A stretch of DNA of 64,000 bases. Source: Minisyncoccota bacterium (GTDB lineage: Bacteria > Patescibacteriota > Minisyncoccia > Phycocordibacterales > UBA918). Numbering within the stretch: position 1 is the first letter of the stretch; every line of letters begins with the position of its first letter. Position numbers and translations under genes: made by a program. Of this stretch, positions 4,573-44,848 are shown piece by piece. Where the stretch lies: positions 192,002 to 256,001 of the forward strand of contig JAWKSP010000001.1 of NCBI GenBank assembly GCA_041389025.1. Reading direction: 5' to 3'. The notes under the pieces were generated by a model. The model worked only from the letters and a program-made list of their open reading frames with translations. It did no database searches and was not told the origin of the DNA.

Positions 4573-4830
4573 TTAATAAAATAGAAAGAAAAAAATTGAC
4601 TCGTAAAAGTATTGAATAAACTCTCTCACCCAAATACCAAACGTTGCCAAAAGCCAAATAATTCCACCCACAATAAACAAAGCTACGTACAATACTATCA
4701 ATATACCCAAAAAATAGATGCAGGAAATGAATATATTTTTCTTTTCGTTTTTCTTAGAGACACTTTTTAACATCATATATGAGGCTATACACATTATTAT
4801 AAGTACCAACATTCCAATAATCATTTGCAT
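4573..4830 (-). CDS. small hypothetical membrane protein (3 TM)
   Basis: 85 aa, strongly hydrophobic; no recognisable motif. Confidence 0.3.
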   Translation of the reverse strand: MQMIIGMLVLIIMCIASYMMLKSVSKKNEKKNIFISCIYFLGILIVLYVALFIVGGIIWLLATFGIWVREFIQYFYESIFFFLFY

Positions 4831-4890: not shown

Positions 4891-5112
4891 TCACAAAGCA
4901 AACGTCATAACTTTATAAACCCAACTAAAAAAAGTGTTTAGAAAAAATACTATTAGAAAAATTACCAACAGACATACGACAAATAAGCTTATTGAAGCAA
5001 ATTCCTTAGTTGGAGATTCATCAGGTATCTTATTTTTTAATTTCGTTTTAACAAACCAAAACGACAATACCCCTACAACCATCCAAAATATAATACTTAC
5101 CATGATATCCAT
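4891..5112 (-). CDS. small hypothetical membrane protein (2 TM)
   Basis: 73 aa, two hydrophobic helices. Confidence 0.3.
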   Translation of the reverse strand: MDIMVSIIFWMVVGVLSFWFVKTKLKNKIPDESPTKEFASISLFVVCLLVIFLIVFFLNTFFSWVYKVMTFAL

Positions 5113-5217: not shown

Positions 5218-6498
5218 ATGTCACGAATTGTAAATTTTCTGAAAAACCTAATCCCAAAACCCTTACTAAACCTTATTCGTCCACACTATCACTACACCCT
5301 AGCCTACCTCGCAGACCGTTGGTACAAGCACCCTTCAAAAGAACTGGTTGTTATCGGCGTCACCGGTACCAAAGGAAAATCGACCACCACTGAACTAATG
5401 GCCAAAATCCTAGAAACTAACGGCCACAAAGTCGCTTCTCTTTCCACTATCCAGTTCAAAATCGGTGAGGATATTGAGCGCAACCTTTTTAAAATGACTA
5501 TGCCAGGACGTTTTTTTGTTCAGCGTTTCCTCAGACAAGCTGTCGAGGCCGGCTGTACCCACGCCGTAGTAGAAATGACTTCAGAAGGTGCCAAACAATT
5601 TCGCCACAGTTTTATTGAACTAAACGCTCTTATTTTCACCAACCTTACACCAGAACACATCGAATCACACGGCTCATTTGAAAAATACAAACAAGCAAAA
5701 TTATCAATCGCCAAACGACTGGAAGAATCCATAAAAAGACCACGCTATATCGTGGCTAATGTTGACGATGAACACGGAGTAGACTTTCTTGATTTAGATA
5801 TTGAGTATAAGCTCCCTTATTCGCTAAAAAATCTATCCCTTTATTCCCTTCACAATGACAGTGTTAGTCTAGTATTTGGAGACACCACTATTCGAGTACC
5901 ACTAATCGGACTATTTAACGTATACAATATATTGGCCACTATCACCTTGGCTAGAGCGATGGATATTTCTTTTTCCACCATCGACAAAGCCTTGCGAAAT
6001 ATTGATAAAATCGCCGGCCGAGTAGAAAAGTTCAAAAGCCCTAAGGAAGCCAGTAAAAAAGTAACAGCCATTGTAGACTATGCCCATACGCCCGACTCTT
6101 TAGAAAAACTTTATCAAGCCTTTCCAAACGTAAAAAAAGTTTGTGTTCTAGGTAACACCGGTGGTGGACGAGACAGTTGGAAAAGACCGGAGATGGCTTC
6201 AATCGCCGAAAGATACTGTGATCAAATAATCCTTACTGATGAAGACCCTTATGACGAAAACCCTTACGAAATAATCAAACAAATGGAAAAAGGAATAACT
6301 GATAAAAGTAAATTAGAAATTATCATGAATCGTCAAAAAGCCATTAGGAAAGCAATTGAAAAATGTGACGAAGATGGTTATGTGATAGTTTCTGGCAAAG
6401 GCACTGACCCATATATCATGGGACCAAAAGGCACTAAAACTCCTTGGAGTGACGCTGAGATAGTACAAGAAGAATTAGCTGAACTAGCTACAAATTAA
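5218..6498 (+). CDS. murE: Mur ligase family protein, MurE-like (UDP-MurNAc-tripeptide synthetase), short N-terminus
   Basis: P-loop GVTGTKGKSTT; VVEMTSEG...FTNLTPEHIESHG (MurE MEVSSHGL...FTNLSRDHLDYHG); DYAHTPDSLEKL motif. Confidence 0.65.
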   Translation: MSRIVNFLKNLIPKPLLNLIRPHYHYTLAYLADRWYKHPSKELVVIGVTGTKGKSTTTELMAKILETNGHKVASLSTIQFKIGEDIERNLFKMTMPGRFFVQRFLRQAVEAGCTHAVVEMTSEGAKQFRHSFIELNALIFTNLTPEHIESHGSFEKYKQAKLSIAKRLEESIKRPRYIVANVDDEHGVDFLDLDIEYKLPYSLKNLSLYSLHNDSVSLVFGDTTIRVPLIGLFNVYNILATITLARAMDISFSTIDKALRNIDKIAGRVEKFKSPKEASKKVTAIVDYAHTPDSLEKLYQAFPNVKKVCVLGNTGGGRDSWKRPEMASIAERYCDQIILTDEDPYDENPYEIIKQMEKGITDKSKLEIIMNRQKAIRKAIEKCDEDGYVIVSGKGTDPYIMGPKGTKTPWSDAEIVQEELAELATN

Positions 6499-8011
6499 TT
6501 ATCCCAATTTTCCAATCTTTACCTGATTCAACTATTTCCGGCGTAACCTTTATTCCCTCCCTACTATACAAAGCACCTTCAGACATATTACCAGCACTAA
6601 CTACCGGCACTTGATTCCAAACTGCCTGCACTTTAAGTATAGTATCCAAAGAATGATTTAAAACCTCAGACTCATCAAACCATGAATGCGACACGGGATG
6701 AGCAACAAAAGGCACTGACTCTCTTCCTTTTATGACCTTACGAACCCCTTTAGGATCAAGTCCTTCAAAACAAAACATAACCGAAGGTATATAATCCGGT
6801 AATAAAGTTTGATCAAACAATGGACCGGGTTGATAGTAAAGCTTGCTTCTTATCTGTTCTAACAAATCACTAAAGCCGAGGGTTTTTAATAAAGCTATAT
6901 AAATGTAGGGCATAAATTCCCCTTGCGGAGTAAGTGATTGTTTATCGACCCCATACCCCTCCTTACCCACACCATCATAAATAGTAGCTCTAACGGTAGC
7001 CGAGTTTTTAGTTAAAAAAGCTGGTGATACATCTATCATCACAGTTTTTGTATCACCAGTTTGAAAACGAAATAATTTATAAGCTGACTCCGGAGTTAAA
7101 TTTCCATCATTATAATAAGAACCTTCTGGCAATATTAAATAATCAGGCTCATAACTTAAAGCAAAAGTGACCGCCTCCACTATAACTTCGTGTTTATAAA
7201 TATCGATATCATCTGACATCGACTCAGATGAAGTATCGGTAAAAGTAGTATCAACAATCAATACAGTCTTGTTTTCTGACGGTTTATAGTCTTCAACCAA
7301 AGACCAAGAAGCACTAAAGAATAGAACTGCAATAAACGGTCCGCTAATTTTATAAAAATTTAAACGACTGTTTAGACTAAAAATAAGCCATAGACCATAG
7401 CCAAGAACCGCTCCCAAAGCTGACAAAATATAAACCCCGCCCCACCGAGCGAATTGTAATAAAGTCTCATGTTCAGCTAATAAATAACCAAAGTAACCTA
7501 AACTATAGGCAGTGTTTATAGTTGCCCCCACCCCAAAAGTTAAAATTGAAAACATTAACGAACCAAAAACTTCACTAAATATAAATAGGATTACAAACAA
7601 AAAAGGTAAGACTTTGGCATTGATTTTTTTTTGCAAAAACCAAAAACCAGAAGCTAACAAAGCTCCACCTGACCCCAAAAATAAGGAGACAGTAACCCAG
7701 TACAAAAAAATAAATAAGTTTTCCCAATGTCCCAACATCAGATTTAAACCAGCTTCAGGATTTACCTTAAAAAACATCGAGGTGGCAAATAACGATTTTG
7801 TAGTAAAGGCCAGCCAACCACCTAAAACAACCTTTTTAAAAGAAGTGTTTTTTGTTACCACTAAAAGAAAGACTAGTATCCCAAAAAAACTAACGACCCA
7901 AAGTACCGGTAAAACAAAACCAATACCCAGAAGAATTCCACTTACTAGGAATAAAAAATAAGGAGTCTTTAATATTCGACTAAACGCCATACTATCTATG
8001 ATACAACACAA
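6488..8011 (-). CDS. lnt: apolipoprotein N-acyltransferase (Lnt-like): polytopic N-domain plus C-terminal nitrilase/CN-hydrolase domain
   Basis: 507 aa; ~7 N-terminal TM helices; C-domain with LILPEG and MFCFEG (catalytic Glu/Cys context). Confidence 0.55.
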   Translation of the reverse strand: MCCIIDSMAFSRILKTPYFLFLVSGILLGIGFVLPVLWVVSFFGILVFLLVVTKNTSFKKVVLGGWLAFTTKSLFATSMFFKVNPEAGLNLMLGHWENLFIFLYWVTVSLFLGSGGALLASGFWFLQKKINAKVLPFLFVILFIFSEVFGSLMFSILTFGVGATINTAYSLGYFGYLLAEHETLLQFARWGGVYILSALGAVLGYGLWLIFSLNSRLNFYKISGPFIAVLFFSASWSLVEDYKPSENKTVLIVDTTFTDTSSESMSDDIDIYKHEVIVEAVTFALSYEPDYLILPEGSYYNDGNLTPESAYKLFRFQTGDTKTVMIDVSPAFLTKNSATVRATIYDGVGKEGYGVDKQSLTPQGEFMPYIYIALLKTLGFSDLLEQIRSKLYYQPGPLFDQTLLPDYIPSVMFCFEGLDPKGVRKVIKGRESVPFVAHPVSHSWFDESEVLNHSLDTILKVQAVWNQVPVVSAGNMSEGALYSREGIKVTPEIVESGKDWKIGIINL

Positions 8012-15354: not shown

Positions 15355-17082
15355 ATGGTTCAATTTGATGACAAATTTACTAATCTAAGAATTAACGACC
15401 TTAGAAAGGACGAGGAGGAAAAACTTATTCAATCTCTAGCTCCTCAATATGGCTTTGATTATATAAACTTACATGGTTACACCATAAACCCTGAAGCTGT
15501 TGCCTTGATTCCAGAAGAAAGCGCTAGACAAGCTGAGCTGGTCGCTTTTGATTATACTCACAACACTATTTCTGTAGCTGTTCGTAATCCCAATAACAAA
15601 AACACTCAAATCATCTTGGAAAAAATTCAAACCGACCGGCAAAATTTGCAAATTTATATGTGCTCAACCAGTAGCCTTAAGCACGCTTGGGCTCGCTATG
15701 CTGACTTAGTGGATACTAAAGCCCGTAAAAAAGGAGTGTTTGATATTGATACTGAAATAATTACCAACCTAATAAAAGATATAAAAACCACTGATGATGT
15801 AATAAACAAACTAAAACATATCAGCACCATAAACAATTCCAGACGAATCACTGAAACTATCGAGATAATGTTTGCTGGAGCAATCGGTCTTTTTGCTTCT
15901 GACATACACATAGAACCAGAACAACAAGCTATCAGATTACGCTACCGTCTAGACGGTGTTCTACATGACATTTATGATGTAGACAATTATATTTACAACC
16001 GTCTCATGTCTAGAATAAAACTCTTGGCCGGTATGACTTTAAACAAAAAAATGGAGGCTCAAGATGGACGCTTTACTTTTGTGGTCGGTGATAAAGAAAT
16101 CGAAGTTAGAACCTCAGTTATCCCAGGCGCCTTAGGTGAATCTGCGGTAATGCGTCTTTTAGACCCTAGTGTAGCCAGCTTTGATATTAACAGCATCGAC
16201 CTCAACCCCATACTTAGAGAAGTTATTGATAAAGAACTTAAAAAACCAAACGGTTTAATCATCACCACCGGCCCCACCGGCTCTGGAAAAACTACTGCCT
16301 TATACTCATTTCTAAAAGAAACACATAAAGAAGGGGTAAAGATTATCACCATTGAAAATCCGGTTGAATACAAAATTGAGGGAGTAGTACAAACCCAAAC
16401 CGGCGATGATTATACTTTCGCCTCAGGACTCCGAGCCATCTTACGTCAAGACCCTGACATAATTCTTGTTGGTGAAATCCGTGATGAAGAAGTTGCCACG
16501 ACAGCCATACATGCCGCCCAGACCGGCCACTTAGTATTCTCAACCCTGCACACCAACAGCGCAGTTGGTGGTTTTCCTCGTCTAATTGATCTAGGAGTAG
16601 ACCCAAGAATAATTGGCAGCTCTATCAATATAATGATGGGGCAAAGATTGGTTAGAAAATTATGTGACTGCAAGCAACCGGAAGAAATAAGTAAAAGCGA
16701 CAGAAATCTAATTATGGAAACAGCCAAAAAACACCCAGCCGGTATAGTGATACCAGAGCCTTTAGTGATATACAAAGCGGTCGGTTGTTCAAAGTGTGAC
16801 CAAACTGGTTTTAAGGGACGAATGGGAATTTTTGAAGCAATTTTGGTTGACGAGGCAGTTGAAGCGGCAGTAATTCGTGACCCTCGCGAACACGTCATAC
16901 TAGAAGCTGCCGAACCACAAGGCATACCCACCATGGTTGAAGATGGTATAGAAAAAGTCATTAGAGGTATCACCTCTTTAGCAGAGTTGGAAAGAGTGGT
17001 TGAACTACCAAGAAAATCCGAAAAAGCTTTACCTAATAAAAAAATTAACGATGACGACTTTCTTTCACATGTAGTATCGTAA
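15355..17082 (+). CDS. pilB: type IV pilus / type II secretion ATPase (PilB/GspE family)
   Basis: 575 aa; GSPII_E N-domain; Walker A TGPTGSGKTT; Asp box and His box (VLVGEIRD...TGHLVFSTLHTN); C-terminal CxxC...CxxC. Confidence 0.85.
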   Translation: MVQFDDKFTNLRINDLRKDEEEKLIQSLAPQYGFDYINLHGYTINPEAVALIPEESARQAELVAFDYTHNTISVAVRNPNNKNTQIILEKIQTDRQNLQIYMCSTSSLKHAWARYADLVDTKARKKGVFDIDTEIITNLIKDIKTTDDVINKLKHISTINNSRRITETIEIMFAGAIGLFASDIHIEPEQQAIRLRYRLDGVLHDIYDVDNYIYNRLMSRIKLLAGMTLNKKMEAQDGRFTFVVGDKEIEVRTSVIPGALGESAVMRLLDPSVASFDINSIDLNPILREVIDKELKKPNGLIITTGPTGSGKTTALYSFLKETHKEGVKIITIENPVEYKIEGVVQTQTGDDYTFASGLRAILRQDPDIILVGEIRDEEVATTAIHAAQTGHLVFSTLHTNSAVGGFPRLIDLGVDPRIIGSSINIMMGQRLVRKLCDCKQPEEISKSDRNLIMETAKKHPAGIVIPEPLVIYKAVGCSKCDQTGFKGRMGIFEAILVDEAVEAAVIRDPREHVILEAAEPQGIPTMVEDGIEKVIRGITSLAELERVVELPRKSEKALPNKKINDDDFLSHVVS

Positions 17083-25753: not shown

Positions 25754-25807
25754 GGATGCTTCTTAAATAAAATACCGCTTTTGCGGTATTTTATTTAAGA
25801 AGCATCC
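25754..25807. terminator. 54-bp perfect palindrome overlapping the dnaA stop codon
   Basis: ggatgcttcttaaataaaataccgc tttt gcggtattttatttaagaagcatcc (25-bp arms). Confidence 0.55.
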
Positions 25808-26969
25808 TGATTTGAGTTATTTCTTCTTCGAGTTCTGTATCTTCCTTTAATTCCAACTTAATTTTTTCACAAGAATGGATAACTGTAGTATGGTCTCTGC
25901 CACCTAGTTTCTTACCAATTGCAGGGTAAGAAACCTGGAAATCTTCACGTAATATATACATAATAATTTGCCTTGGTTTTACAATCTCTTTTCGTCTAGT
26001 TTTTTCATAAATACTAGATTGGTCTATGTCAAAATACCGAGCAACTTTTTCTACTACATCCGATACAGCTAAAGTTTTTCTTGGTTTTGAGCTGTTTTTA
26101 ATAATAGACTTAACTTCATCTAAAGATAGAGTTTTACCAAGTAGTTGTGACTGACACATGATGGTGTTTAAAGCTCCTTCAAGTTCACGAATATTTCCTT
26201 CAATCGATTGTGCTAAATGATCTACCACTTCATTTGATAGAGTTATACTGTTTTGAGCAGCTTTAGCTTTTAAGATAGCGGTTCTTGATTCTAAATCAGG
26301 AGCTGGGATGTCAACAATCATACCTTGAGCAAAACGAGACATCAGCCTTTCTTCTAGACCAGATAACAATCCAGGATGTACGTCACTAGAGAAAACTATT
26401 TGTTTATTGGTGTCATGAAGAGCGTTAAAAAGATGAAACAGCTCTTCCTGAGTTTTTTCTTTACTAGCTAAAAATTGAACATCGTCCATGATCAAAACAT
26501 CATATTGACGGTATTTGTCTTTAAAGCTGTTAGCTGTACCGTTTTGTAGAGAATTAAAGTAGTCTACCGCAAATCTTTCGCTAGTAACATAAAAAACTTT
26601 TTTACCGGTTTTTTTTACTTGGTTCCCCACTGCTTGAATAAGGTGGGTTTTTCCATGTCCGGTTTTTCCGTAAATAAACAAAGGATTGTAAGCGATTCCA
26701 GGTTTTTCACTAACGGTTTTAGCGGCTGTGTGGGCTAAAGCGTTGTAGTGTCCGATAACAAAAGTATCAAATGAATATTTTGGATTTAAGTTATCGCTTT
26801 TATTTATATAATATTCTTCTAAAGGTAGAGCAGCGTTTACGGTTTGAGTTTTGTTTCCGTTATCATTTCTTTTATCGCTTCTTTGCACTACTTCATATTC
26901 AATACTGCGAACATAAGGAGTTAGGTCTCTTAAAGTTTTCAAGATCATTGACTGAAATTTATCTTGCAA
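25791..26969 (-). CDS. dnaA: chromosomal replication initiator DnaA (minimal model from first canonical start TTG; domain I is encoded further upstream to at least 27125)
   Basis: AAA+ Walker A GKTGHGKTHL, DnaA box-binding C-domain; upstream in-frame codons encode LWDDALVKIELSITPANFKTWFRDTYILSLEDGTAVLAVPSVFVRDWL (DnaA domain I). Confidence 0.9.
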   Translation of the reverse strand: MQDKFQSMILKTLRDLTPYVRSIEYEVVQRSDKRNDNGNKTQTVNAALPLEEYYINKSDNLNPKYSFDTFVIGHYNALAHTAAKTVSEKPGIAYNPLFIYGKTGHGKTHLIQAVGNQVKKTGKKVFYVTSERFAVDYFNSLQNGTANSFKDKYRQYDVLIMDDVQFLASKEKTQEELFHLFNALHDTNKQIVFSSDVHPGLLSGLEERLMSRFAQGMIVDIPAPDLESRTAILKAKAAQNSITLSNEVVDHLAQSIEGNIRELEGALNTIMCQSQLLGKTLSLDEVKSIIKNSSKPRKTLAVSDVVEKVARYFDIDQSSIYEKTRRKEIVKPRQIIMYILREDFQVSYPAIGKKLGGRDHTTVIHSCEKIKLELKEDTELEEEITQIRMLLK

Positions 26970-28656: not shown

Positions 28657-28726
28657 TAGGAAATAGGAAACTAAGAAAAATAAAAACCACCAAAATGGTG
28701 GTTTTTATTTTTCTTACTAAATTATC

Positions 28727-29446
28727 TTATTGACAAGTTATTCTCCAATACTGGATATTTCCAGTATTTAAGGAAGTGGCGTATGACCAAGTACCACCTA
28801 AACTTGTACATTTATTAATCCCTTCTGAACAGTCGTAGCCATTTTGAGCGGCGCTACTTGATACACAATTATACGTTTCTTGTCGATACAAACCTTTTTT
28901 TGCTTCCACTAAACACGGTCCTTTGTCAGCATTGCTGGAGTTGCTACCGTACCAAGTTCCGTTTAGTCCGTCTGGATCTTCACACTCTGCCTGACCTTCT
29001 GTGTTGTTGTCTAGATATTCAACGTTGTCACCAACTTCTCTTGTAACATTGCCTGGTAAGGCGGCTTTGGTTGGAGCGGAATTAGTTGGGTTAGAAACAG
29101 GAGCGATAAACAAGCTGGTGCTGGTGATGTTGGGATTAATGGTGTTAAAGATTAATACCGCTGAAATGATCAGGAGTAAACCTAAAGTAGCTCCCCAGAT
29201 ATCACCCTTAGCGTCTTGTTTGCTGGTGACTACATCAGTCAACATCCATTTAACACCAGCAACAATGATTTTAATTACTGCTAACAAAGCAGCTACACTG
29301 ATGGATAGGGCGTAAAGAGCATTTATATAGGTATTTAAGTCAGTGTTCGGGTTACTAACGCCAGGTATACCAACCAGAGTAGCTTGTCCTAAAGCTGTTG
29401 CTGGTAGTAAGAATATGGCAAAAATTAATATGTGTTTATAGCTCAT
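28727..29446 (-). CDS. VirB2/TrbC-like pilin with 130-aa cysteine-rich C-terminal extension
   Basis: Signal peptide, then two hydrophobic helices (ALYALSISVAALLAVIKIIVAGVKWML; IWGATLGLLLIISAVLIF) in VirB2 topology; C-terminal domain has 8 Cys; last gene of the T4SS-like cluster. Confidence 0.45.
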   Translation of the reverse strand: MSYKHILIFAIFLLPATALGQATLVGIPGVSNPNTDLNTYINALYALSISVAALLAVIKIIVAGVKWMLTDVVTSKQDAKGDIWGATLGLLLIISAVLIFNTINPNITSTSLFIAPVSNPTNSAPTKAALPGNVTREVGDNVEYLDNNTEGQAECEDPDGLNGTWYGSNSSNADKGPCLVEAKKGLYRQETYNCVSSSAAQNGYDCSEGINKCTSLGGTWSYATSLNTGNIQYWRITCQ

Positions 29447-30617
29447 ACATCCAAAGTGTGTTATCTATTTTATTTATAAAGTAAACAGCGTACTCACTGT
29501 CTCCAAGGTAGAGGTCGACAATATCAAGTTCTCGACTGGTTTGTTTGAAAGTGTCTGCTAGTAGAGTAGTTTTTAATTCTGAAGCATCAATCAGCCAAAG
29601 TGAATCTTTAAAATTCATTCCACCTTTATACCACTCATCTGGGAAGTTAAAAGGCAGGGTGGTTAATGAATCTTCGGCACAGATAAGGCTGGTTGTGTTT
29701 GTGCCAAGGATACACTTTTCAGGTAAGAGCGTTATTGGTAATTCTGATTTTTCTAAAGTTTCTAAATTAAAAACAGAGGTATTGTTTTCTCGGTTATTGG
29801 TGGTACTGTAGATAATCATTTTGTCATTTGCTAAGGCTGAAAAGCCAAAACCGGAAGCTGGTAGTCTGTCTATTTTATTGTTCTTAACTTTATATAAATA
29901 TCCCTCCAAAAGATAAGACGGTTTTGGATAAACATAATGTGTGTCTTCAGCGCTATTTCCCCATTGTATGGTGGCTTCGTGAAAAGGTAAGGAAAATACT
30001 ATAGTATCTTTTTTGGTTGTTAGATTTAAATTGTGACCATTTAAACCGTTGGAGTCAGTGGTGGTGTAAAGTAGGTTTTGCCCATCTTGACTTAAGGTAA
30101 AACTATTGACTGCCAAACCAGGTTCTTCTAAAGCGGTTTCACCGGTTTCTTTATCGAGGGCGCCGATGGTTAAGTTGGTGTTCTTGGTGTTAGTGTGTTT
30201 ACTAAAAACTATCCAGTCACCATTCGGGTCTATTTCAGCATGGTTAGTTTCGGCGACAGTGGTGCCTGAAATTTTATTTTCTTCTCCCGTCTCTAGGTTG
30301 ATTGAAAAAACATGTCCTGTCCCCTTTTCAGCATAATATATAATTGGGATATTAGCCGCTCCAGAGTCGGGGTTGTTGATTTCTGTAAAACCAGCTACTG
30401 ATTTGGTGGTCAATTGGCGCAGGTTTGGTCCGGTTGTGTTTATGGTTGGTTCTTTGTTTTCTTCAGTATTATTTACCTCTTCTTCGCCGACGGTACCAAG
30501 TTTTACAAGCACATCCTGCACACTTTTTGGGGTACCAAAAAATAATAAATAAACCCAAACGGCAACAAGAATTAAGATTACAATTGCTCCGCTAATAATT
30601 AAAATTTGCTGTTTCAT
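29436..30617 (-). CDS. membrane-anchored hypothetical protein, beta-propeller-like repeats
   Basis: 393 aa; N-terminal TM; repeated G-x-hydrophobic-rich strand patterns; part of cluster. Confidence 0.35.
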   Translation of the reverse strand: MKQQILIISGAIVILILVAVWVYLLFFGTPKSVQDVLVKLGTVGEEEVNNTEENKEPTINTTGPNLRQLTTKSVAGFTEINNPDSGAANIPIIYYAEKGTGHVFSINLETGEENKISGTTVAETNHAEIDPNGDWIVFSKHTNTKNTNLTIGALDKETGETALEEPGLAVNSFTLSQDGQNLLYTTTDSNGLNGHNLNLTTKKDTIVFSLPFHEATIQWGNSAEDTHYVYPKPSYLLEGYLYKVKNNKIDRLPASGFGFSALANDKMIIYSTTNNRENNTSVFNLETLEKSELPITLLPEKCILGTNTTSLICAEDSLTTLPFNFPDEWYKGGMNFKDSLWLIDASELKTTLLADTFKQTSRELDIVDLYLGDSEYAVYFINKIDNTLWMYEL

Positions 30618-30625
30618 AAGCTACA

Positions 30626-31579
30626 CTAATAATTTACTTTAAATTCTGATTCAGCTCCTTGTAAAATAACATCCAAACTTCTAACTCGAAATTCAACTCT
30701 GGACGTACCGCTACCGCCTTGTCTAGCTAATGTTACTTCATAAGGATTTCCAGAGCTACTAGGGCTGCGTTGACCGTCTATTTCCCACTCGATTAAACTT
30801 GGTCGGTTGTAAGTGTTTATATCTAAGTAGTAAGGTTCGGCCTTTATGTTGGTGGTGTCGCCAATTAAATTTAAAGAATTTTTTATCTGGTTGTATTTTA
30901 TACCTAAAAGAGGATTAACTTCATAAAATCTAATTTCTGGTTCCACTGAAGCCAGTTCTAAACTACGAGAAGCTACTTGGTTTCCGTTCAGGTCGTTTAT
31001 GGTTATGGTGACTATGTTGAATCCACCAAATGGTACCTTGAGTGATATTTCATTTTTACCTCTAATTGGACCACCTTCAATGTTTACGTTGTTTAATGAC
31101 CAGTTATAAATATAGTTATTGCTACTTTGTCCATTTACTAAAGCGACCAAGTTTATAGTACTGTCTACTGTAGGTAGGGCTCTACCTAAATAAAAGGCCG
31201 GTACTCTAGTTTGCGGTTCAATGATAACATCTAAATAAACCGGTCTAATAATTTTTCTGTCAGTAAAGGTCTTCCCTCCAACTGTTTCCACTACAGCTTC
31301 TAAGGTGATGTTTTTTCCAGCTTCTTTGGTATTTACTTCAATCGTGCGTTTGTTACTCAACTCTACCTTTGTCTCACCATCAATTTTCCAGAAAATATTA
31401 GTAGTTTGTTCAGAGATGGAATAGTCGTCAATTGAAGCCTTGATTAAACTATAAGGACTGATGTAGTCAGATTCTACGTCAATACTCAAACCGGATCCGG
31501 CTAGATTAGGGCTGATTTGTGCATAACTAAAACCAAATGGTGACAGTAAAATAATGGCAACTATTAATAATTGTTTCAT
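30626..31579 (-). CDS. secreted hypothetical protein (beta-rich, Ig-like repeats)
   Basis: 317 aa; signal peptide MKQLLIVAIILLSPFGFSYAQ. Confidence 0.35.
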   Translation of the reverse strand: MKQLLIVAIILLSPFGFSYAQISPNLAGSGLSIDVESDYISPYSLIKASIDDYSISEQTTNIFWKIDGETKVELSNKRTIEVNTKEAGKNITLEAVVETVGGKTFTDRKIIRPVYLDVIIEPQTRVPAFYLGRALPTVDSTINLVALVNGQSSNNYIYNWSLNNVNIEGGPIRGKNEISLKVPFGGFNIVTITINDLNGNQVASRSLELASVEPEIRFYEVNPLLGIKYNQIKNSLNLIGDTTNIKAEPYYLDINTYNRPSLIEWEIDGQRSPSSSGNPYEVTLARQGGSGTSRVEFRVRSLDVILQGAESEFKVNY

Positions 31580-31628: not shown

Positions 31629-32450
31629 CTATCTTGGGTATTTCGCTACTACAGTAGTCCAGACTAAAAGCCAAGGAGCTAAATTGAATAGTGGTATGGA
31701 ATAGCCAATAATAGCTAGTAAAAAAGCCCCGTATTTAGCTCCAGCGTGACTACCACCTAGAGATTCAATGTTGTTTTTTTTGTAAAAAACAAATAAACTA
31801 AACATAATAATCATATTTATACCCAGTAACAAAAGATGTGGTATAAAAAAAATACTAAGTGACACATCTTCTAGACTAAAGCCGATTAAGTTGGTGGTAA
31901 AGTCATAAATTCCACCGAAGACAAATCTGACAGTATTAAAAATAAAGTTTCCGTTACTGGAAATGGTGTCAGCTATAGCGGTCGCGGCACCGGATAAAGC
32001 AAAACCAACTAAACTAAATATCCCTAAAGGAAGTTGAACGGTTGGCCAGTAACCAATATACAAAGAACTGGTCCAGCGCCCAATAATTTTAGCTTGTTTC
32101 TTCTTTATCTTAGTAGTAACAGATAGGTTGGTTGATGAGTTTCGGTGAGGAGTTTTTATTAAATTTGCTACCGGTATTTGTCCTTCGGCTCTGGTCTTGA
32201 AATTTTGTACTACCCTACCTTGGTTGTCGGTGGTGACATCGGTTGTTTTAGGTTTAGTTACTTTTACTTTATTTACGCCAGAATGTTTGTATTGTAAATT
32301 GAACTTTTGGTCAACTGTGGGGTTGTTTGGTACGTCATTTTCTTTTAAATATTGCCAGTCATCATTTAAACGGTCACCACCAGTTCGTTTGGCGGTCTGG
32401 TTTTTGGATTTATTAGATTGAAAATCCGCGGTATTTTCGGCAGTGGCCAT
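31629..32450 (-). CDS. hypothetical membrane protein (basic hydrophilic N-half, 4 C-terminal TM)
   Basis: 273 aa; in cluster directly downstream of the VirB4-like gene. Confidence 0.35.
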   Translation of the reverse strand: MATAENTADFQSNKSKNQTAKRTGGDRLNDDWQYLKENDVPNNPTVDQKFNLQYKHSGVNKVKVTKPKTTDVTTDNQGRVVQNFKTRAEGQIPVANLIKTPHRNSSTNLSVTTKIKKKQAKIIGRWTSSLYIGYWPTVQLPLGIFSLVGFALSGAATAIADTISSNGNFIFNTVRFVFGGIYDFTTNLIGFSLEDVSLSIFFIPHLLLLGINMIIMFSLFVFYKKNNIESLGGSHAGAKYGAFLLAIIGYSIPLFNLAPWLLVWTTVVAKYPR

Positions 32451-32472: not shown

Positions 32473-34266
32473 TTAGCTACGGGAAGCCTGAAGTTCTTCT
32501 CTCGCTTTTTTGATCTGTAGTAATTGAGAGGGATCAGAAGTGATGATCTGATCTTCTGTATAAGAAGCAATAACTTTTACAGCTACATGTTTGAGTCCGG
32601 CAAAAAATATTCCTTCTCCTACATTTGATTCCAAAAGCAAAAACTTCTCTTCATCGGTCAGGTTAAAGGTTTTTTGAATGTTATCGATAGCGGTTGGTGA
32701 TTGTTTCATCAGAAATTGTATAGATGAGTTGGTGATCATTGGAACTCCGTAGGGTGAGCGCAAAAAATCGTCCACGTCTTGAGTGATGGTGGCGATACCA
32801 AGATAATACTTTCGACCACGCTTAGCTAGACTAAATAAGAAAGAAGCAGTGTCTTCTGATTTCATCATCCACCAAGCTTCGTCAATGACTAGTAGTCGTT
32901 TAGCTAGTCGGCGACGCACAGAGCCCCAGATAAAATTGGTAATTATATACATAGCTACCGTTTTTAGTTCATCTTCCATGTCTCGTAAAGAGAAAACTAC
33001 AAACTTTTGGTTGATATCAACGTTGGTTGGTTTATTCATAAAACCAGACCAGGTGCCGGACGTATATTTTTGTAATCTAGATATAAGCGAACTACTGCCG
33101 TCCATACCAGCCAGCACCATTTCAAAGTCTGATAAAAGTGGTGGTTCTAGACTGGAAAAGTCAGTGTCTCCAGTGATGTCTTTTAAGGCGTAAGTTTCTT
33201 GAACGGCTAAATCAAGGATAGTTTCTTCTTCTGGGGTCAGGCCGCCAAGCATTAATCTAAAGAGACCAATTAATTCAATAATATGGCTACGTAAAACATC
33301 TCTGGGGTTTTCATCTTGTTGGGGCGGTGGTAAATCAAAAGGATTTATGTGGTGATCTGAAGATAAAGAAATATTAAAAAAGCGCCCGCCGGTGGCTTCG
33401 GCTAGGTATTCATATTCTCGTTCTGGATCGAGAACAATAACTTCTGCTCCAAACATTAAAGAACGAAGAATCTCCAGTTTTAGACTGTAGGATTTACCAG
33501 CACCAGAGGTGGCAAAGGTTACTGAGTTGTAGTTTGTTAAAGAAAAGCGGTCAAATAATACCAAGGATGAATTGTGGCGATTTACTCCATATAAAATTCC
33601 GGTGTCTGAAGTTAGGTCAAATGAAGTAAAAGGAAAGAAGCTTGATAAAGGTGAAGAATTAAACTTGCTGTGTACCAGTAGTTTGTCGGTGGCTGAGGGT
33701 ATGACACTCTGCATACCTTGTTCCTGTTGAAATAGTGCTGGTTTTATATAGACTAATCTAGCATCCAACATACCTTTAATATCATTTTCCGCTTTATTTA
33801 ATATCGCTTCACTCTCACCGTAAATAGTTATATAAAATCCAACATTAAATAATTTTTCCTCAGCTTGTTGTAATTTGTCACGTAATTCTTCTAGATTGCG
33901 GTAAGCTGCTTCAAGTTGCGGGTCGCGTACTTCCCCCTTTTCTGCCTTAATGTTTATTTGGCTTTGTACTTCAGCTACTTTTTTTTGAAATTTCTTTAAA
34001 GTGTCGGCGGTGTCTATGGGGTGGATGTAGATGGAAATATCTAACTCCCTTTCAACATTTAAGATTGGTTCTAACCAACTGGAGTTAAGATAGTGTGGAT
34101 AGGATACCGCATACAATACTCTAGCGTACTGCCCACTTAAATTTAGGTTTCTTGGAGTGAAATTAATTGCTGATGGTGCTACCACATCAATTAATGTCAT
34201 TAGTTCATCACTAATATCAAATTCATCCTTATTAGGTTTTTGTGTAAATTTATCAAAAAAGTTCAT
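32473..34266 (-). CDS. VirB4/TrbE/TraC-family type IV secretion ATPase (C-terminal ATPase portion)
   Basis: 597 aa; Walker A ATSGAGKSYSL; Walker B region RLLVIDEAWWMM; C-terminal ...LGIATITQDVDDF typical of VirB4. Confidence 0.7.
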   Translation of the reverse strand: MNFFDKFTQKPNKDEFDISDELMTLIDVVAPSAINFTPRNLNLSGQYARVLYAVSYPHYLNSSWLEPILNVERELDISIYIHPIDTADTLKKFQKKVAEVQSQINIKAEKGEVRDPQLEAAYRNLEELRDKLQQAEEKLFNVGFYITIYGESEAILNKAENDIKGMLDARLVYIKPALFQQEQGMQSVIPSATDKLLVHSKFNSSPLSSFFPFTSFDLTSDTGILYGVNRHNSSLVLFDRFSLTNYNSVTFATSGAGKSYSLKLEILRSLMFGAEVIVLDPEREYEYLAEATGGRFFNISLSSDHHINPFDLPPPQQDENPRDVLRSHIIELIGLFRLMLGGLTPEEETILDLAVQETYALKDITGDTDFSSLEPPLLSDFEMVLAGMDGSSSLISRLQKYTSGTWSGFMNKPTNVDINQKFVVFSLRDMEDELKTVAMYIITNFIWGSVRRRLAKRLLVIDEAWWMMKSEDTASFLFSLAKRGRKYYLGIATITQDVDDFLRSPYGVPMITNSSIQFLMKQSPTAIDNIQKTFNLTDEEKFLLLESNVGEGIFFAGLKHVAVKVIASYTEDQIITSDPSQLLQIKKAREELQASRS

Positions 34267-34271
34267 ATTTT

Positions 34272-34913
34272 TTAAGTTTGTCTTTCGGCCACAGGAGCAT
34301 TGCCGGTAGTGTCAGCTGGGTTGTAGACATGGTAAAACAACTCCACTAAATCATCGTTATTTAAAGGAATGGTTCTTACTCCCACTCGCGCCAAGCCTTG
34401 TTGAATAATAGATACTCTTTGTTCTAGTTGAGTTCTTTGTTCTTCAAATCGCATATCGGTTGGTAGTTTGGTGGTGTTTTGACTTCCAAATAATGAACTT
34501 ATTCCCTTGGTAATATTCACCGGAGTTGGTGAATATGGAACCACTACAAAAAAATTTTTACTCATTATATCAACTTCATTGGTGAAGGTTCTAATAAATT
34601 CTATGTATTCACGAAGTTGAATCCGCATCAGGTCGTTATCTTGCATGGTTTCACGGGACCTTAAGAGTTCCAAGTATGGTTCTATATTTAAACGTCTGGA
34701 CTGAATGTATATCTGGATTGAGAAATCTAGGGTGTTTAAAAATGTTTGAAATTGTTGCAAAATCGCCTGTTGTTCATCGGTGGACTTCAAGGCAAAGTTA
34801 ACTGAAGAAGCTAGTAGGACGGTGCACATTTGACCAGACTTCAAAATAGCAACACCGTCTTTTATATCACGGATGGCTACAAAGTCTTGGGTGGTGGCGG
34901 ATGTTTTTGGCAT
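34272..34913 (-). CDS. VirB4 N-terminal-domain-like protein (separate ORF, 5 nt upstream of ATPase ORF, different frame)
   Basis: 213 aa; DFVAIRDIKDGVAILKSGQMCTVLLASSVNFALKSTDEQQAILQQFQTFLNTLDFSIQIYIQSRR resembles the VirB4/TraC N-domain pattern. Confidence 0.4.
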   Translation of the reverse strand: MPKTSATTQDFVAIRDIKDGVAILKSGQMCTVLLASSVNFALKSTDEQQAILQQFQTFLNTLDFSIQIYIQSRRLNIEPYLELLRSRETMQDNDLMRIQLREYIEFIRTFTNEVDIMSKNFFVVVPYSPTPVNITKGISSLFGSQNTTKLPTDMRFEEQRTQLEQRVSIIQQGLARVGVRTIPLNNDDLVELFYHVYNPADTTGNAPVAERQT

Positions 34914-34914
34914 A

Positions 34915-35334
34915 TTATTCTTTCTTTTGTAAGGCTTCTAATTCTAATCGTCTAGCTAAAGAGTTTATGTCTTTCCCTCTCATTTTAGTGTTTGGTGTTT
35001 GAGGCTTGCTTTTATTTATAGAATTTGGGGTAAACAAATTTTTGTGAACAATGTCTTTTTTTTGTCGCCATAAATATAACTTATTACTTCCAAGATAGTT
35101 AAAGACAGCTTCTAGAAAAAAAGAAAAAGGTCGATTGTTTACCGGATAAAAAGCTAAAGCCCCAGCGAGTATCATGAGAGGTAAACCAATAATAATAAAA
35201 ACTATTGTTGGTGCAACAAAAAACAAAACTACACCCATTCCAATACCTCCACCAAGATAGAGAAATTGCCGCCAAGTCAAAGGACCGAAAATCTTATCTT
35301 CTATCTCGATAAACTGTGGTACCTCAAAACGCAT
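34915..35334 (-). CDS. VirB3/PrgI/TcpE-like small two-TM protein
   Basis: 139 aa; KIFGPLTWRQFLYLGGGIGMGVVLFF then second TM; immediately upstream of the VirB4-like ORFs. Confidence 0.45.
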   Translation of the reverse strand: MRFEVPQFIEIEDKIFGPLTWRQFLYLGGGIGMGVVLFFVAPTIVFIIIGLPLMILAGALAFYPVNNRPFSFFLEAVFNYLGSNKLYLWRQKKDIVHKNLFTPNSINKSKPQTPNTKMRGKDINSLARRLELEALQKKE

Positions 35335-35821: not shown

Positions 35822-37849
35822 TTAAGAAAAGAATTGAGCTGCGTAGTTGGAATTTCCGTTTGCCCATTTAACCCATGGATTGTTTTTTCCTAAGGCAGTT
35901 TCTTCAGGAATGTCTGTAGAACTTATTCCTAGGTTGGTAGATAGAGCTACTCTTACATCTGATTTATCCTTGCTTGACATACCGTTCTTTATTCTTTCCT
36001 CTAGCATGGCTGGGGTTATGTGGTCATACATATTAGATTGCTTGAAAATATCAATAGGCATTTTCCCTATATCTCTTACGTTTCTTGTAAACATAGAAGG
36101 TTTTTGATCTACACTACTAGCATTTGGATGTGCGTAAACAAGTGCTCCACTGGAGTCTTTTCCTGCCCCTAATACATTACCGTGCGTAGATATATTCGTG
36201 AAGGCGTTGTTTCTGGTATTTTTAATATCTTGTATTTGTTGCGATGAGAATTTACCGGTTTTTTCTAGGTTAGTGATATCATCATCTGACAAATGTACTG
36301 CTACATTTTGAGTGTTTAATTTGTCAAAACCTAACCTTTCTTTTTCTATACCAGTCATTTGCTTTATTGTCTTTCCAAGTTCTTCAAGCGCATCTGATAG
36401 AGATGAGGAGCTCTTAGTGTGGTCAGTAAGGATTTTATTATTCTCTTCAAATTTATCTTTTCGTTCCTGCTCACCTCTTGTTTGGTTTGCTCTGGCTTGA
36501 GTAGATTGCTTGTATTCTCTTTCTCTCTGGTTTGTTGTTCCTGTGCCTAGTTCGGCATTTTTTTGCTTCTCTGCTCCACCTCTGATAGTTTTATCAACCC
36601 AGTTCCATCTAGATGCTGTTCCAAGTACACCACTTCTTGTCTGTAGTTCGTTTAATTTTCTTTCACTATGTGCTCCAGAAGCATTTACTGCTGTACGTAT
36701 TCCTGCTCTGGCTGGATAGGTTATACCAAATACTATATTACCCGCCCCTCTTTGAGTGGCTCTTCTAGCTCGTCCGGCTAAGTTGCGACCGACATTTATT
36801 ACACCAGAAGCACCGTCTGCCCCCATTCTGTTAGCTACTACTACAGCTGCGACCAAAAAGACACAGGTTACTAAAAACATAGCAATAACGTTGGCGATTT
36901 CGTTTGAGGTAGCGTTTCCTTTGGCATAAATTTCCGCCATACTTATATTGCTGGCATTTTGGAAGTTGGTCAGTATATAGAAAGCGAGATAAAGCATTAA
37001 AAGGTAGGCTGGAGCAAAGAAGGCTCTACCTAAAAATCCTTTCCAATAATCCCTAGAGTAATTGGCCATACTTGGAAATACCCAACCCAAAAACATGATT
37101 GGGGACAATATCATGTAGATGTTTAAAACCACAAATCTAATAATTAAAAGAAAGGCGCCGGCAAAGAAAACAAAAGCCATTACTACAAAAGTTATCATGG
37201 TGCCAAAAACGTAAGTAAAACCACTACCGACTTGGTTGGTGGTAAAGTTCGATAAAGTTTTATCGTCCCAGATACTGGATAGACCAAGTACGTTGGCAAA
37301 ACCATCGGATACTTCATAAGTTCCTGTTGGGTTGGAATGGTCAAAGGCTTGGGCTACTTGAGTGGCGGCGACGTTTGAGAAATCAACGATAAATTTGGTA
37401 AAGAAAAGGCTGAAGTTCACCAATAAAGCCGCCATTATAATGTAGGCCAACATTCTTCTGGCATCAGTGTCACCGGCGTTTAAAATCATTTTAAAGCCAA
37501 TGTAGACTAAACCAAAAATGAAGGTTAAATTAAAAATGTCTCTTACCACTTCCCATAGTCTATCTACCGCAAAACCTAAGCCGGAGTTGTTGTATAGGTC
37601 AGCAAAACCAACTACAAAAGTGGTAACAGCTAAGTTTAGTAGTGTGCCGGCCACCCAAACCAAAAAACCAAAAACTGCGTTAACAAACAACCATAAAACT
37701 TTCTCTAAACCACTGGATATGCTACTTAGTACTCCACCATCATTAACATCTGAGGCAAAAATTAAAGATGGTAAAAATAGTGTCACCAAAGCCAAGGCGC
37801 TAAATAGGATTTTCTTTCTGTTAAGGGTTAATTTATTCATATTTATCAC
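35822..37849 (-). CDS. VirB6/TrbL-like polytopic membrane protein with about 330-aa hydrophilic C-terminal extension
   Basis: 675 aa; signal/TM then at least 6 TM helices in TrbL-like arrangement; Arg/Gln/Glu-rich C-terminal tail. Confidence 0.5.
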   Translation of the reverse strand: MINMNKLTLNRKKILFSALALVTLFLPSLIFASDVNDGGVLSSISSGLEKVLWLFVNAVFGFLVWVAGTLLNLAVTTFVVGFADLYNNSGLGFAVDRLWEVVRDIFNLTFIFGLVYIGFKMILNAGDTDARRMLAYIIMAALLVNFSLFFTKFIVDFSNVAATQVAQAFDHSNPTGTYEVSDGFANVLGLSSIWDDKTLSNFTTNQVGSGFTYVFGTMITFVVMAFVFFAGAFLLIIRFVVLNIYMILSPIMFLGWVFPSMANYSRDYWKGFLGRAFFAPAYLLMLYLAFYILTNFQNASNISMAEIYAKGNATSNEIANVIAMFLVTCVFLVAAVVVANRMGADGASGVINVGRNLAGRARRATQRGAGNIVFGITYPARAGIRTAVNASGAHSERKLNELQTRSGVLGTASRWNWVDKTIRGGAEKQKNAELGTGTTNQREREYKQSTQARANQTRGEQERKDKFEENNKILTDHTKSSSSLSDALEELGKTIKQMTGIEKERLGFDKLNTQNVAVHLSDDDITNLEKTGKFSSQQIQDIKNTRNNAFTNISTHGNVLGAGKDSSGALVYAHPNASSVDQKPSMFTRNVRDIGKMPIDIFKQSNMYDHITPAMLEERIKNGMSSKDKSDVRVALSTNLGISSTDIPEETALGKNNPWVKWANGNSNYAAQFFS

Positions 37850-43822: not shown

Positions 43823-44848
43823 ATGACAAAAGAAAAACATAACAATTCAGCATTTCGTATTGTAGCTGAGTGTGTAGCTTTGTTTTTAATAATTGTAATA
43901 CCATTAACTGTACAGGCAAAATTATTTAGTAAGGACTCAACTAATAAAGGAATAATTTTAGTTGAAACTGGTTTTAATAATTCTCCACTAGATATCCCTC
44001 TGCTCACAGCTGAACACAATCCAGATCCACACAACAACCTCGGTGGTGCTGAGGTGGTAGTAGAAGATGGAGCTTTGGTCTCTTCCGGTCCGGTCGGCGA
44101 AGATGTAATTGCTTTAAACCGTACTTCAACCGGAGAGATAAGTATTTATACTGTTCGTGAAGGTGATACTTTATCTCATATTGCTGATATGTATGGTGTT
44201 ACTGCTAATACCATCTTATGGGCTAATGATCTACCAAAAGCTACCAGTATAAGAGAAGGACAAACTTTAGTTATTTTACCGATTGCTGGTGTGCAACATG
44301 TAGTAAAGAGTGGTGATACGGTTAATTCTATTGCTAAAAAATATGACGGTAATGTTGAAGAAATTCTTTCTTATAACCAACTGGCCAGCGCTGATGGTTT
44401 GGTAGTCGGTGAAACTATTGTAGTTCCTGGTGGAGCTATTCACTCCGCTCCAGTTATAAAATCAGCTTCACCAACCAGTGTCTCAGGGTCGGTGGCTGCT
44501 AGTACAGCTGGTTGGACTCACCCAGCTCCTGGGGCTATTAAGTCACAAGGCTTACATGGTTACAATGCCGTTGACTTAGCTGGTTCAGTTGGTTCCTCTA
44601 TTAGAGCTGCCGCTGCTGGTGAAGTGATTGTTTCTAAAAGTTCTGGTTGGAATGGTGGCTATGGACAATATATTGTAATAAAGCACTCTAATGGTACTCA
44701 GACTCTATACGCTCACCTATCAAGTAACAAGGTTGGAGTCGGAGCTTATGTCGGTCAAGGTGAAGTGATTGGTGGTATGGGCAATACTGGAAAATCTACC
44801 GGTTCACACTTGCATTTCGAAGTTCGTGGTGGTAAAAATCCTTTTTAA
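43823..44848 (+). CDS. LysM-domain M23 metallopeptidase (peptidoglycan endopeptidase)
   Basis: N-terminal TM; two LysM repeats (YTVREGDTLSHIA..., HVVKSGDTVNSIA...); M23 HxxxD ...HLHFE zinc motifs (HGYNAVDLAG; GSHLHFEVR). Confidence 0.85.
   Translation: MTKEKHNNSAFRIVAECVALFLIIVIPLTVQAKLFSKDSTNKGIILVETGFNNSPLDIPLLTAEHNPDPHNNLGGAEVVVEDGALVSSGPVGEDVIALNRTSTGEISIYTVREGDTLSHIADMYGVTANTILWANDLPKATSIREGQTLVILPIAGVQHVVKSGDTVNSIAKKYDGNVEEILSYNQLASADGLVVGETIVVPGGAIHSAPVIKSASPTSVSGSVAASTAGWTHPAPGAIKSQGLHGYNAVDLAGSVGSSIRAAAAGEVIVSKSSGWNGGYGQYIVIKHSNGTQTLYAHLSSNKVGVGAYVGQGEVIGGMGNTGKSTGSHLHFEVRGGKNPF

Follow-up and report, generated by a model that had tools for sequence, protein, structure and literature searches.

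What is a pilin doing with a large additional domain at its C terminus? In type IV secretion systems (T4SSs), VirB2/TrbC pilins are small proteins, with precursors of ~100 to 130 residues and no added fold. In the 64,000-nucleotide stretch of a Minisyncoccota chromosome that we analyzed (contig JAWKSP010000001.1, forward strand, positions 192,002 to 256,001; hereafter the window), a VirB2-like gene of the T4SS_pilin family occupies positions 28727 to 29446 on the minus strand. Its product counts 239 residues, the last 134 of which form a C-terminal extension with a cysteine domain. We put at about one in two the probability that this protein is a pilin-family T4SS subunit, the conserved core of which displays a swappable extracellular specificity domain.

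The open reading frame (ORF) starts with ATG, comprises 239 codons plus a stop, and has an 11-nt overlap with the stop of the gene upstream. Besides its Pfam matches, it has a 100% identical counterpart at NCBI, protein R3B60_01180 from a Candidatus Paceibacterota metagenome-assembled genome (623-kb contig). We found 295 homologs in the databases and 73 species-level genomic loci, and therefore the ORF is real and not a chance reading frame. The first-pass annotation of this DNA had recognized a VirB2 layout in the first ~105 residues, namely, a signal peptide followed by two hydrophobic helices, and both hydropathy and an AlphaFold model bore this out. The putative Sec-type signal peptide covers residues 1 to 20 (29387 to 29446, minus strand) and shows K4, a hydrophobic run at residues 6 to 14, and A18-L19-G20 in front of Q21. 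Cleavage is predicted between A-L-G and Q21, and the consensus in the family alignment is F-A in front of Q. VirB2 is likewise cleaved before a Gln.

The mature core, residues 21 to 105 (29132 to 29386, minus strand), was delimited by the AlphaFold helices, by invariant alignment columns, by a mean pairwise identity of 72% and by a T4SS_pilin match over residues 36 to 103. It consists of an L-V-G-I-P-G motif, helix 1, a lysine-bearing loop (residues 66 to 82), helix 2 and an invariant I-N-P junction. The hydrophobic segments lie at ~44 to 66 and 83 to 103, with hydropathy peaks of 2.3 and 2.2, and the helices of the model span residues 37 to 69 and 76 to 103. Directly behind helix 2 comes the conserved junction I103-N104-P105...F113. 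The lysines of the core, K66, K76 and K80, are confined to the inter-helix loop, with none in either flank. Because the signal peptide would be cleaved off and lysines occur only in the loop, an N-out, loop-in, C-out topology fits the protein, which would place the extension outside the cell. The L-V-G-I-P-G motif is near-invariant and sits just after the predicted cleavage site, N-terminal to the stretch matched by Pfam (29319 to 29377, residues 24 to 43). It might serve in processing or as a contact during assembly.

Behind residue 105, the extension is rich in N (15 residues), S (14), T (13) and G (13); the first-pass annotation had described a tail of ~130 residues rich in N, S and G. Its count of eight cysteines had to be corrected to six (C155, C178, C194, C206, C213 and C238), which are precisely those within the motifs that it quoted. 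The extension begins with a P/S/T/N-rich linker, residues 106 to 140 (29027 to 29131, minus strand), which is variable, with alignment gaps, a mean identity of 23% and low AlphaFold confidence (pLDDT) at residues 116 to 120, and which is shortened or missing in many homologs. The six-cysteine alpha/beta domain follows at residues 141 to 239 (28730 to 29026, minus strand; hereafter the C-domain), and its AlphaFold model is confident (pLDDT of 89.3). Whether the cysteines are conserved had been left for homologs to decide. Among 30 full-length homologs, four of them are invariant and the other two are present in at least 90%, and the same holds in 54 sequences.

The six cysteines fall into two modules. 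Module A runs from C155 to C178 and follows the two-cysteine pattern C-x(4-8)-G-x-W-x(8-15)-C with a conserved G-x-W. Module B contains C194, C206, C213 and C238 in the pattern C...Y-D-C-x6-C-x3-G-G...C. Module B alone, two B modules, or A+B+A are each found in some homologs. The core almost never holds a cysteine (120 database homologs), and the number of cysteines is even in all 72 of the 72 extensions of at least 60 residues, with a range of 0 to 20. This even count argues strongly that the cysteines form disulfide pairs and that the extension is extracytoplasmic. The C-domain would then probably be held by three disulfide bonds. Cysteine co-occurrence supports a single pair, C155-C178, the two having been lost together in three homologs. 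A joint loss of C194 and C213 was discarded as evidence for pairing, since it was traced to a different type of C-domain.

In profile searches, the C-domain matched pilin ORFs only. A phmmer search of 1.84 billion representatives with the C-domain returned P0004 as the sole pilin-family match. Four other matches (P0121 to P0124), proteins of 1,027 to 1,675 residues that are rich in repeats, reached E values down to 2e-12, and were judged by eye to be compositional. The N/S/G/T-rich C-domain draws such spurious multi-stretch phmmer matches, and its compositional bias is a caveat for searches. When run against an index of 5.8 billion proteins, the C-domain profile (A5) gave zero matches, itself included, probably owing to a limitation of the word index.

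We collected 75 complete pilin ORFs from 72 species. An extension of at least 60 residues is present in 72 of the 75 (64 to 357 residues, median of 166), and just two pilins, L026 (122 residues) and L075 (130 residues), have the canonical size. In contrast, the 120 best classical VirB2 homologs are 102 to 128 residues long, with one at 193. A long extension is thus normal in the Paceibacterial clade and very unusual compared with classical VirB2. The first-pass annotation, which had called it unusual, was right with respect to the classical pilins and wrong with respect to the relatives of this one.

Not all extensions are of the same kind. At least one other, unrelated type of C-domain is carried by the pilin core; it has module A and, behind it, an alpha/beta domain of ~110 residues with the motif R-Y-Q-x-A-H-x-P and one terminal disulfide. 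It was found in P0054, P0066, P0070, P0075 and P0104 and in L016, L037, L044, L053 and L067; in L016, the one member that was scanned, this domain had no Pfam match. L073 (CAYZZT010000006.1) contains tandem pilin paralogs at 5943 to 6833 and 6889 to 7818, in which the core is conserved and the extensions are cysteine-free. One of these extensions matches Peptidase_M15_3 (E = 3e-16, above threshold) and the other an SLT-like lytic transglycosylase (E = 1.6e-3, below threshold). In a Pfam scan of ten diverse C-extensions, nothing was recognized except these two enzyme domains. Those peptidoglycan hydrolase fusions indicate that, as far as can be judged from sequence, the pilin core is a carrier for diverse domains working outside the membrane.

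The two parts of the protein have evolved at very different rates. Over 54 homologs, the mature core had a mean pairwise identity of 72%, as against 23% for both the linker and the C-domain, the latter falling to 17% without the six cysteine columns. In 11 pairs of homologs the cores are at least 85% identical, whereas the extensions cannot be aligned by BLASTP. The clearest case is that of P0064 and P0068, from Kaiserbacteria-type genomes. These share 121 of the 123 N-terminal residues, which reach from the signal peptide through the core into the first part of the linker, whereas beyond this stretch their cysteine-rich C-domains cannot be aligned (E = 0.32). This break looks like a recombination breakpoint, as if the C-domain had been replaced as a cassette. 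The adhesin or tip domain proposed in the first-pass annotation is compatible with such a pattern of conservation, whereas attachment to DNA, which it also suggested, found no support. As another source of variability, we considered that the gene might be the target of a diversity-generating retroelement, and rejected it: a blastn comparison of nucleotides 28727 to 29140 with the window revealed no repeat longer than 27 nt that could serve as a template, and a reverse transcriptase domain was absent from all Pfam scans of the window.

As for the family to which the core belongs, the TrbC/VirB2 profile search that had been suggested gave a two-sided result. Three independent VirB2-type profiles align with the same N-terminal stretch of the query protein, T4SS_pilin (E = 4e-4, 20.8 bits), DUF4134 (E = 1e-3, 19.8 bits) and TrbC (E = 0.04, 14.5 bits), but with scores under the respective gathering scores of 26.6, 26.5 and 27.9 bits. 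Among 30 close homologs, T4SS_pilin was matched by 29 (E < 0.01, best 1e-6), DUF4134 by 14 and TrbC by 9, and a precomputed PF18895 label stands on about one-third of the homologs listed. The genomic context is equally regular. We scanned one genome per species, which yielded the 73 loci, and the order PrgI-TrsD-VirB4-g273-g317-g393-pilin, with the convergent yidC-rnpA and dnaA, recurs in nearly all of them. On the basis of the homolog profile matches and of this synteny, we place the core within the T4SS_pilin family of Patescibacteria and regard its kinship with classical VirB2 as remote. NF045849, a model of pilin-like proteins of mycoplasma integrative and conjugative elements (ICEs), scored 16.4 bits with the query, under its 40-bit equivalog cut-off; it was matched over the hairpin by 44 of 54 family members (E < 0.01, best 1.3e-6), all below 40 bits. 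The possibility has been raised that the pilin came from a diderm T4SS (PMC12102498). The NF045849 match, together with a match of the TrsD-like neighbor to NF045975 (Mbov_0397), hints instead that it came with an MPF-FATA-type ancestor.

How might such a protein work? It would be inserted by the Sec/YidC pathway and cut by signal peptidase after G20. The two helices would form a membrane hairpin with the lysine loop in the cytoplasm, and the mature N terminus and the whole C-terminal part would lie outside the cell, the latter as a flexible linker of 35 residues and an alpha/beta domain of ~100 residues with probably three disulfides. By analogy with VirB2-type pilins, the VirB4/VirB3/VirB6 machine encoded upstream would presumably draw the hairpin out of the membrane and build from it, by stacking, a filament or a wall-spanning conduit. 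Where VirB2-type pili have been solved, it is the inter-helix loop that forms the lining of the lumen (PMC12037004), and hence the termini are found at the pilus exterior. Should the same arrangement apply here, with the loop on the lumen side and the termini turned outward, each subunit would expose its C-domain at the surface. The conserved core would serve as the assembly module, and the fast-evolving, exchangeable C-domain would most likely be the contact or specificity surface toward the envelope of a host or partner cell.

We estimated the packing of such a coat using the parameters of the H-pilus (~90 Å in diameter, C5 symmetry, 12.1 Å rise; PMC12037004). Each subunit would dispose of ~690 Å^2 at the surface and ~910 Å^2 at a radius of 60 Å. 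The cross-section of the 10.8-kDa C-domain is ~670 Å^2, which corresponds to a packing fraction of 0.74 at a shell radius of ~60 Å. In this model, a coat of C-domains on the canonical pilus lattice appears sterically feasible, and the 35-residue linker would add slack.

Several observations weigh against display by a pilin. Every Pfam and NCBIfam score of the query itself is under the curated cut-off. Comparison of the core with 119 genuine VirB2 proteins by hhalign gave a weak local match of 15% probability, although one that speaks for kinship in pairing LAVIKIIVAGVKWML with LAVLGIVAIGISWMF of VirB2 at the corresponding end of a helix, and the family profile had no match among PDB sequences. 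The fold search proposed in the first-pass annotation came back empty, the C-domain model having no similar fold in PDB or BFVD, so that it gives no hint of binding, and the disulfide geometry could not be read from this model. Pfam scans of the window detected no gene for a disulfide-forming enzyme (DsbA, VKOR, thioredoxin). A filament has not been observed with any T4SS of Patescibacteria, and T4SSs of monoderms generally do without pili (PMC12102498). Extensions of up to 357 residues would crowd a canonical lattice, and the hydrolase fusions would suit a locally acting enzyme anchored in the membrane no less than a coat on a filament. Finally, the maturation of known pilins such as TrbC and TrhA involves a loss of C-terminal residues (PMC12037004), and the domain might likewise be cut away.

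Some of these observations would suit a nonpolymerizing accessory subunit, which we hold to be a tentative alternative. The hairpin would only anchor the protein and dock it to the T4SS channel, and the C-domain would be a surface receptor, an adhesin or a local enzyme. It is possible, at the same tentative level, that the linker takes the C-domain through the cell wall and that no pilus is built, as would befit monoderms, in which T4SS pili are generally lacking, and Patescibacteria, in which none has been seen (PMC12102498, PMC10633639). An anchored protein would not face the crowding expected for the longest extensions, and the P/S/T/N-rich linker resembles wall-spanning segments. The Peptidase_M15_3 and SLT-like domains of L073 represent VirB1-type activities, which are normally local in the producer's own wall. 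Nevertheless, a hairpin conserved to such a high degree (72% on average, with many invariant residues) suggests extensive protein-protein packing rather than a mere anchor. The core also falls in families annotated as polymerizing pilins, and its mostly single-copy gene, found in one or two fixed slots by g393 at the end of the VirB4 cluster, shows the pattern of a stoichiometric structural subunit.

It is improbable that the C-terminal region serves as a pro-domain or is set free as a product, through cleavage near I-N-P-x-L-T that leaves a classical small pilin, and just as improbable that the cleaved part is discarded or acts as an assembly chaperone or soluble factor. Such a cut would recall TrbC and TrhA, which lose 27 and 5 C-terminal residues, respectively, before cyclization (PMC12037004), but no TraF-like or other dedicated peptidase was detected among the cluster proteins in profile scans. 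The I103-N104-P105...F113 junction is conserved straight after helix 2, where a cut would fall, and L026 and L075 show that the core can exist without an extension. However, a discarded part would be unlikely to hold its cysteine scaffold while diversifying and being swapped, and the enzyme fusions imply that the C-terminal part is functional.

That the protein is not a T4SS pilin at all, whether a type IV pilus (T4P) pilin with a globular head, with which it shares a conserved hydrophobic N-terminal part and a variable, disulfide-containing globular part and for which a PilB-type ATPase is available in the window (15355 to 17082), or an annotation or assembly artifact joining two genes, was rejected as scarcely credible, as it has a type I signal peptide and two helices, profile matches to VirB2-type families only, a place inside a VirB4 cluster and a recurrent fused frame. 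It has no class III leader (G, the cleavage site, then F/M-x-x-x-E) but starts with MSYKHILIFAIFLLPATALG, followed behind the predicted cut by QATLVGIPG and two helices, and the same fused frame recurs in over 100 proteins of the databases and in 72 genomes, which excludes an artifact. The ATPase in question is of the PilB/T2SSE type with an MshEN domain, encoded on the plus strand 12 kb from the pilin gene; its presence indicates that the genome also has type IV pilus machinery apart from the T4SS.

Display of a specificity domain by a pilin-family core can be taken further, though doubtfully so. Paceibacterial pilins might constitute a polymorphic cargo-carrying system, in which a polymerizing VirB2-like core bears exchangeable cysteine-knotted binding domains of several unrelated types or, in some lineages, peptidoglycan hydrolases, and the filament might be the organelle by which these epibionts recognize their hosts and breach their walls. 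If so, it would be the first among VirB2-type pili in which each subunit bears a globular head, its likeness to type IV pili and to evolved VgrG/PAAR proteins would be one of convergence, and cassette swapping would set the host range.

The window is core chromosome of an ultra-small candidate phyla radiation bacterium of the Paceibacteria (36.7% G+C) and carries dnaN, dnaA, rpmH, rnpA and yidC. A string of minus-strand genes leads from ksgA to the pilin gene, which is its end and is convergent on yidC. In transcriptional order, the string includes a polytopic membrane protein of 675 residues (35822 to 37849, minus strand), assigned as VirB6/TrbL-like by position; it has no Pfam match of its own, and its positional counterparts in L001 and L003 match PF19590 TrbL_3. 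PrgI (VirB3-like; 34915 to 35334, minus strand) matches PF12666 over the gathering score (E = 9.6e-11). It is followed by a 213-residue protein similar to TrsD and to the N-terminal part of VirB4 (34272 to 34913, minus strand), with sub-cut-off matches to NF045975 VirB4_plasma (E = 8e-12) and NF041427 TrsD (E = 2.7e-6); its counterparts match PF26593 TraC-like. The VirB4-type ATPase (32473 to 34266, minus strand) matches PF19044 P-loop_TraG (E = 6e-26), AAA_10 and CagE_TrbE_VirB.

Between VirB4 and the pilin lie three further conserved partners, all on the minus strand. g273 (31629 to 32450; syntenic in 40 loci) is a polytopic membrane protein and g317 (30626 to 31579; 67 loci) a secreted protein with a signal peptide, both without family assignment. 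g393 (29436 to 30617; in 71 of 73 loci) has an N-terminal membrane anchor and a weakly TolB-like beta-propeller region, its match to TIGR02800 (E = 4.8e-5) being far under the cut-off. It lies directly upstream of the pilin gene in 59 of the 73 loci, and in ~12 the order of the two is exchanged, the pilin gene coming one gene earlier. Three loci contain two pilin genes, and most genomes have a single copy. g393, g317 and g273 are tied to the pilin by synteny as tightly as VirB4 is, and they are candidates for hitherto unrecognized parts of the T4SS or of pilus assembly. Neither a relaxase nor any other mobility gene was noted in the vicinity of the cluster. A 45-nt palindrome at 28672 to 28716, found by a terminator scan and inspection of the sequence, has a 20-bp stem with an ACCACC/GGTGGT center and flanking A and T runs, and, lying between the convergent genes for the pilin and YidC, it probably acts as an intrinsic terminator in both directions.

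A few other features of the window deserve mention. By the pilin-core profile, it contains no further pilin gene. Two adjacent small ORFs on the minus strand, at 4573 to 4830 (85 residues) and 4891 to 5112 (73 residues), encode two hydrophobic helices each; the former gave a marginal match to the profile (E = 0.01), probably by chance. A protein with two LysM domains and a Peptidase_M23 domain is encoded at 43823 to 44848 (plus strand), 2.4 kb past the ksgA end of the T4SS string, and VirB1 substitutes of the LysM/M23 kind have been reported linked to virB4 in Paceibacteria (PMC12102498). The dnaA ORF (25791 to 26969, minus strand) starts with TTG and encodes at most 392 residues, with Bac_DnaA from residue 61, and DnaA proteins of the syntenic loci L001 and L003 count 461 residues and include a DnaA_N domain. 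The N-terminal domain of DnaA may thus be missing or diverged here.

Part of this picture was known. Quinonero-Coronel et al. (2025; PMC12102498) described monoderm-type T4SSs of Paceibacteria with VirB2-like pilins by dnaA, dnaN, rnpA, rpmH and ksgA, and the T4SS cluster, its origin-proximal position and VirB2-like pilins near dnaA are therefore not new (PMC12102498, PMC10633639). Epibiotic growth of S. epibionticum, a Saccharibacterium and the only species tested, requires the T4SS together with its array of pilins (PMC10633639). What the T4SS of Patescibacteria does has otherwise been described as completely unknown (PMC11665869), and a review considers a pilus possible in these monoderms, the building of a pilus being an open question (PMC12857230). 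The full-text literature that we searched contained no description of long, cysteine-rich, polymorphic C-domains on nearly all Paceibacterial pilins, nor of C-domain cassette replacement or pilin-hydrolase fusions.

Paceibacteria are the largest class, and their pilin nearly always comes with an extracellular domain that diversifies fast, is swappable and is occasionally a cell wall hydrolase. Such properties suggest that it is the pilin that meets the envelope of the host. The soluble domain of ~100 residues offers a handle for binding assays, antibodies and host pull-downs, and its sequence may track host specificity in metagenomes. The range of what a VirB2-type pilin can look like is broadened as well.

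The closest known relatives are the Patescibacterial VirB2-like pilins (PF18895), such as the essential six-gene array of Southlakia epibionticum ML1 (PMC10633639, PMC12102498, PMC12857230). The pilin studied here belongs to the same Pfam family via its homologs and accompanies the same monoderm-type T4SS (PrgI, TrsD, VirB4 and VirB6), with no relaxase noted nearby, at the same chromosomal site as the Paceibacteria T4SS by dnaA, dnaN, rnpA, rpmH and ksgA (PMC12102498). In contrast to strain ML1, there is usually one gene ending the cluster rather than an array, and unlike the pilins as described so far, it has a 134-residue extension with a conserved six-cysteine domain. With the classical VirB2, TrbC and TraA proteins (PF04956) of T, P, F and H pili it shares the signal peptide, the two hydrophobic helices on either side of a short, charged loop, a place alongside VirB3, VirB4 and VirB6, and a weak profile likeness at the end of helix 1. 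Classical VirB2 is 102 to 128 residues long and has no extra domain, and its C terminus is trimmed and sometimes cyclized (PMC12037004), whereas the extra folded domain on the C terminus makes head-to-tail cyclization of the full-length pilin implausible here. The mycoplasma ICE pilin-like protein (NF045849, Mbov_0395 family) is an 80-residue model of the hairpin only, matched below its cut-off. The match of the TrsD-like neighbor to the ICE VirB4 model for Mbov_0397 fits the published MPF-FATA ancestry, but the cluster here is chromosomal and origin-proximal.

Two further likenesses are analogies of design. Evolved VgrG, PAAR and Hcp proteins of type VI secretion systems and polymorphic toxins also combine a structural N-terminal part, a sharp recombination break and unrelated C-domains, including cell wall hydrolases. 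They belong to a different secretion machine, however, and in our case no toxin or immunity gene was recognized and most extensions are small cysteine-rich modules without enzymatic signatures. T4P pilins differ in their leader, peptidase site and assembly machine, have one helix instead of a hairpin, and show no sequence or profile similarity to the pilin described here. What the two have in common, without homology, is a hydrophobic helical assembly module joined to a variable, disulfide-stabilized, surface-exposed part that is replaced like a cassette.

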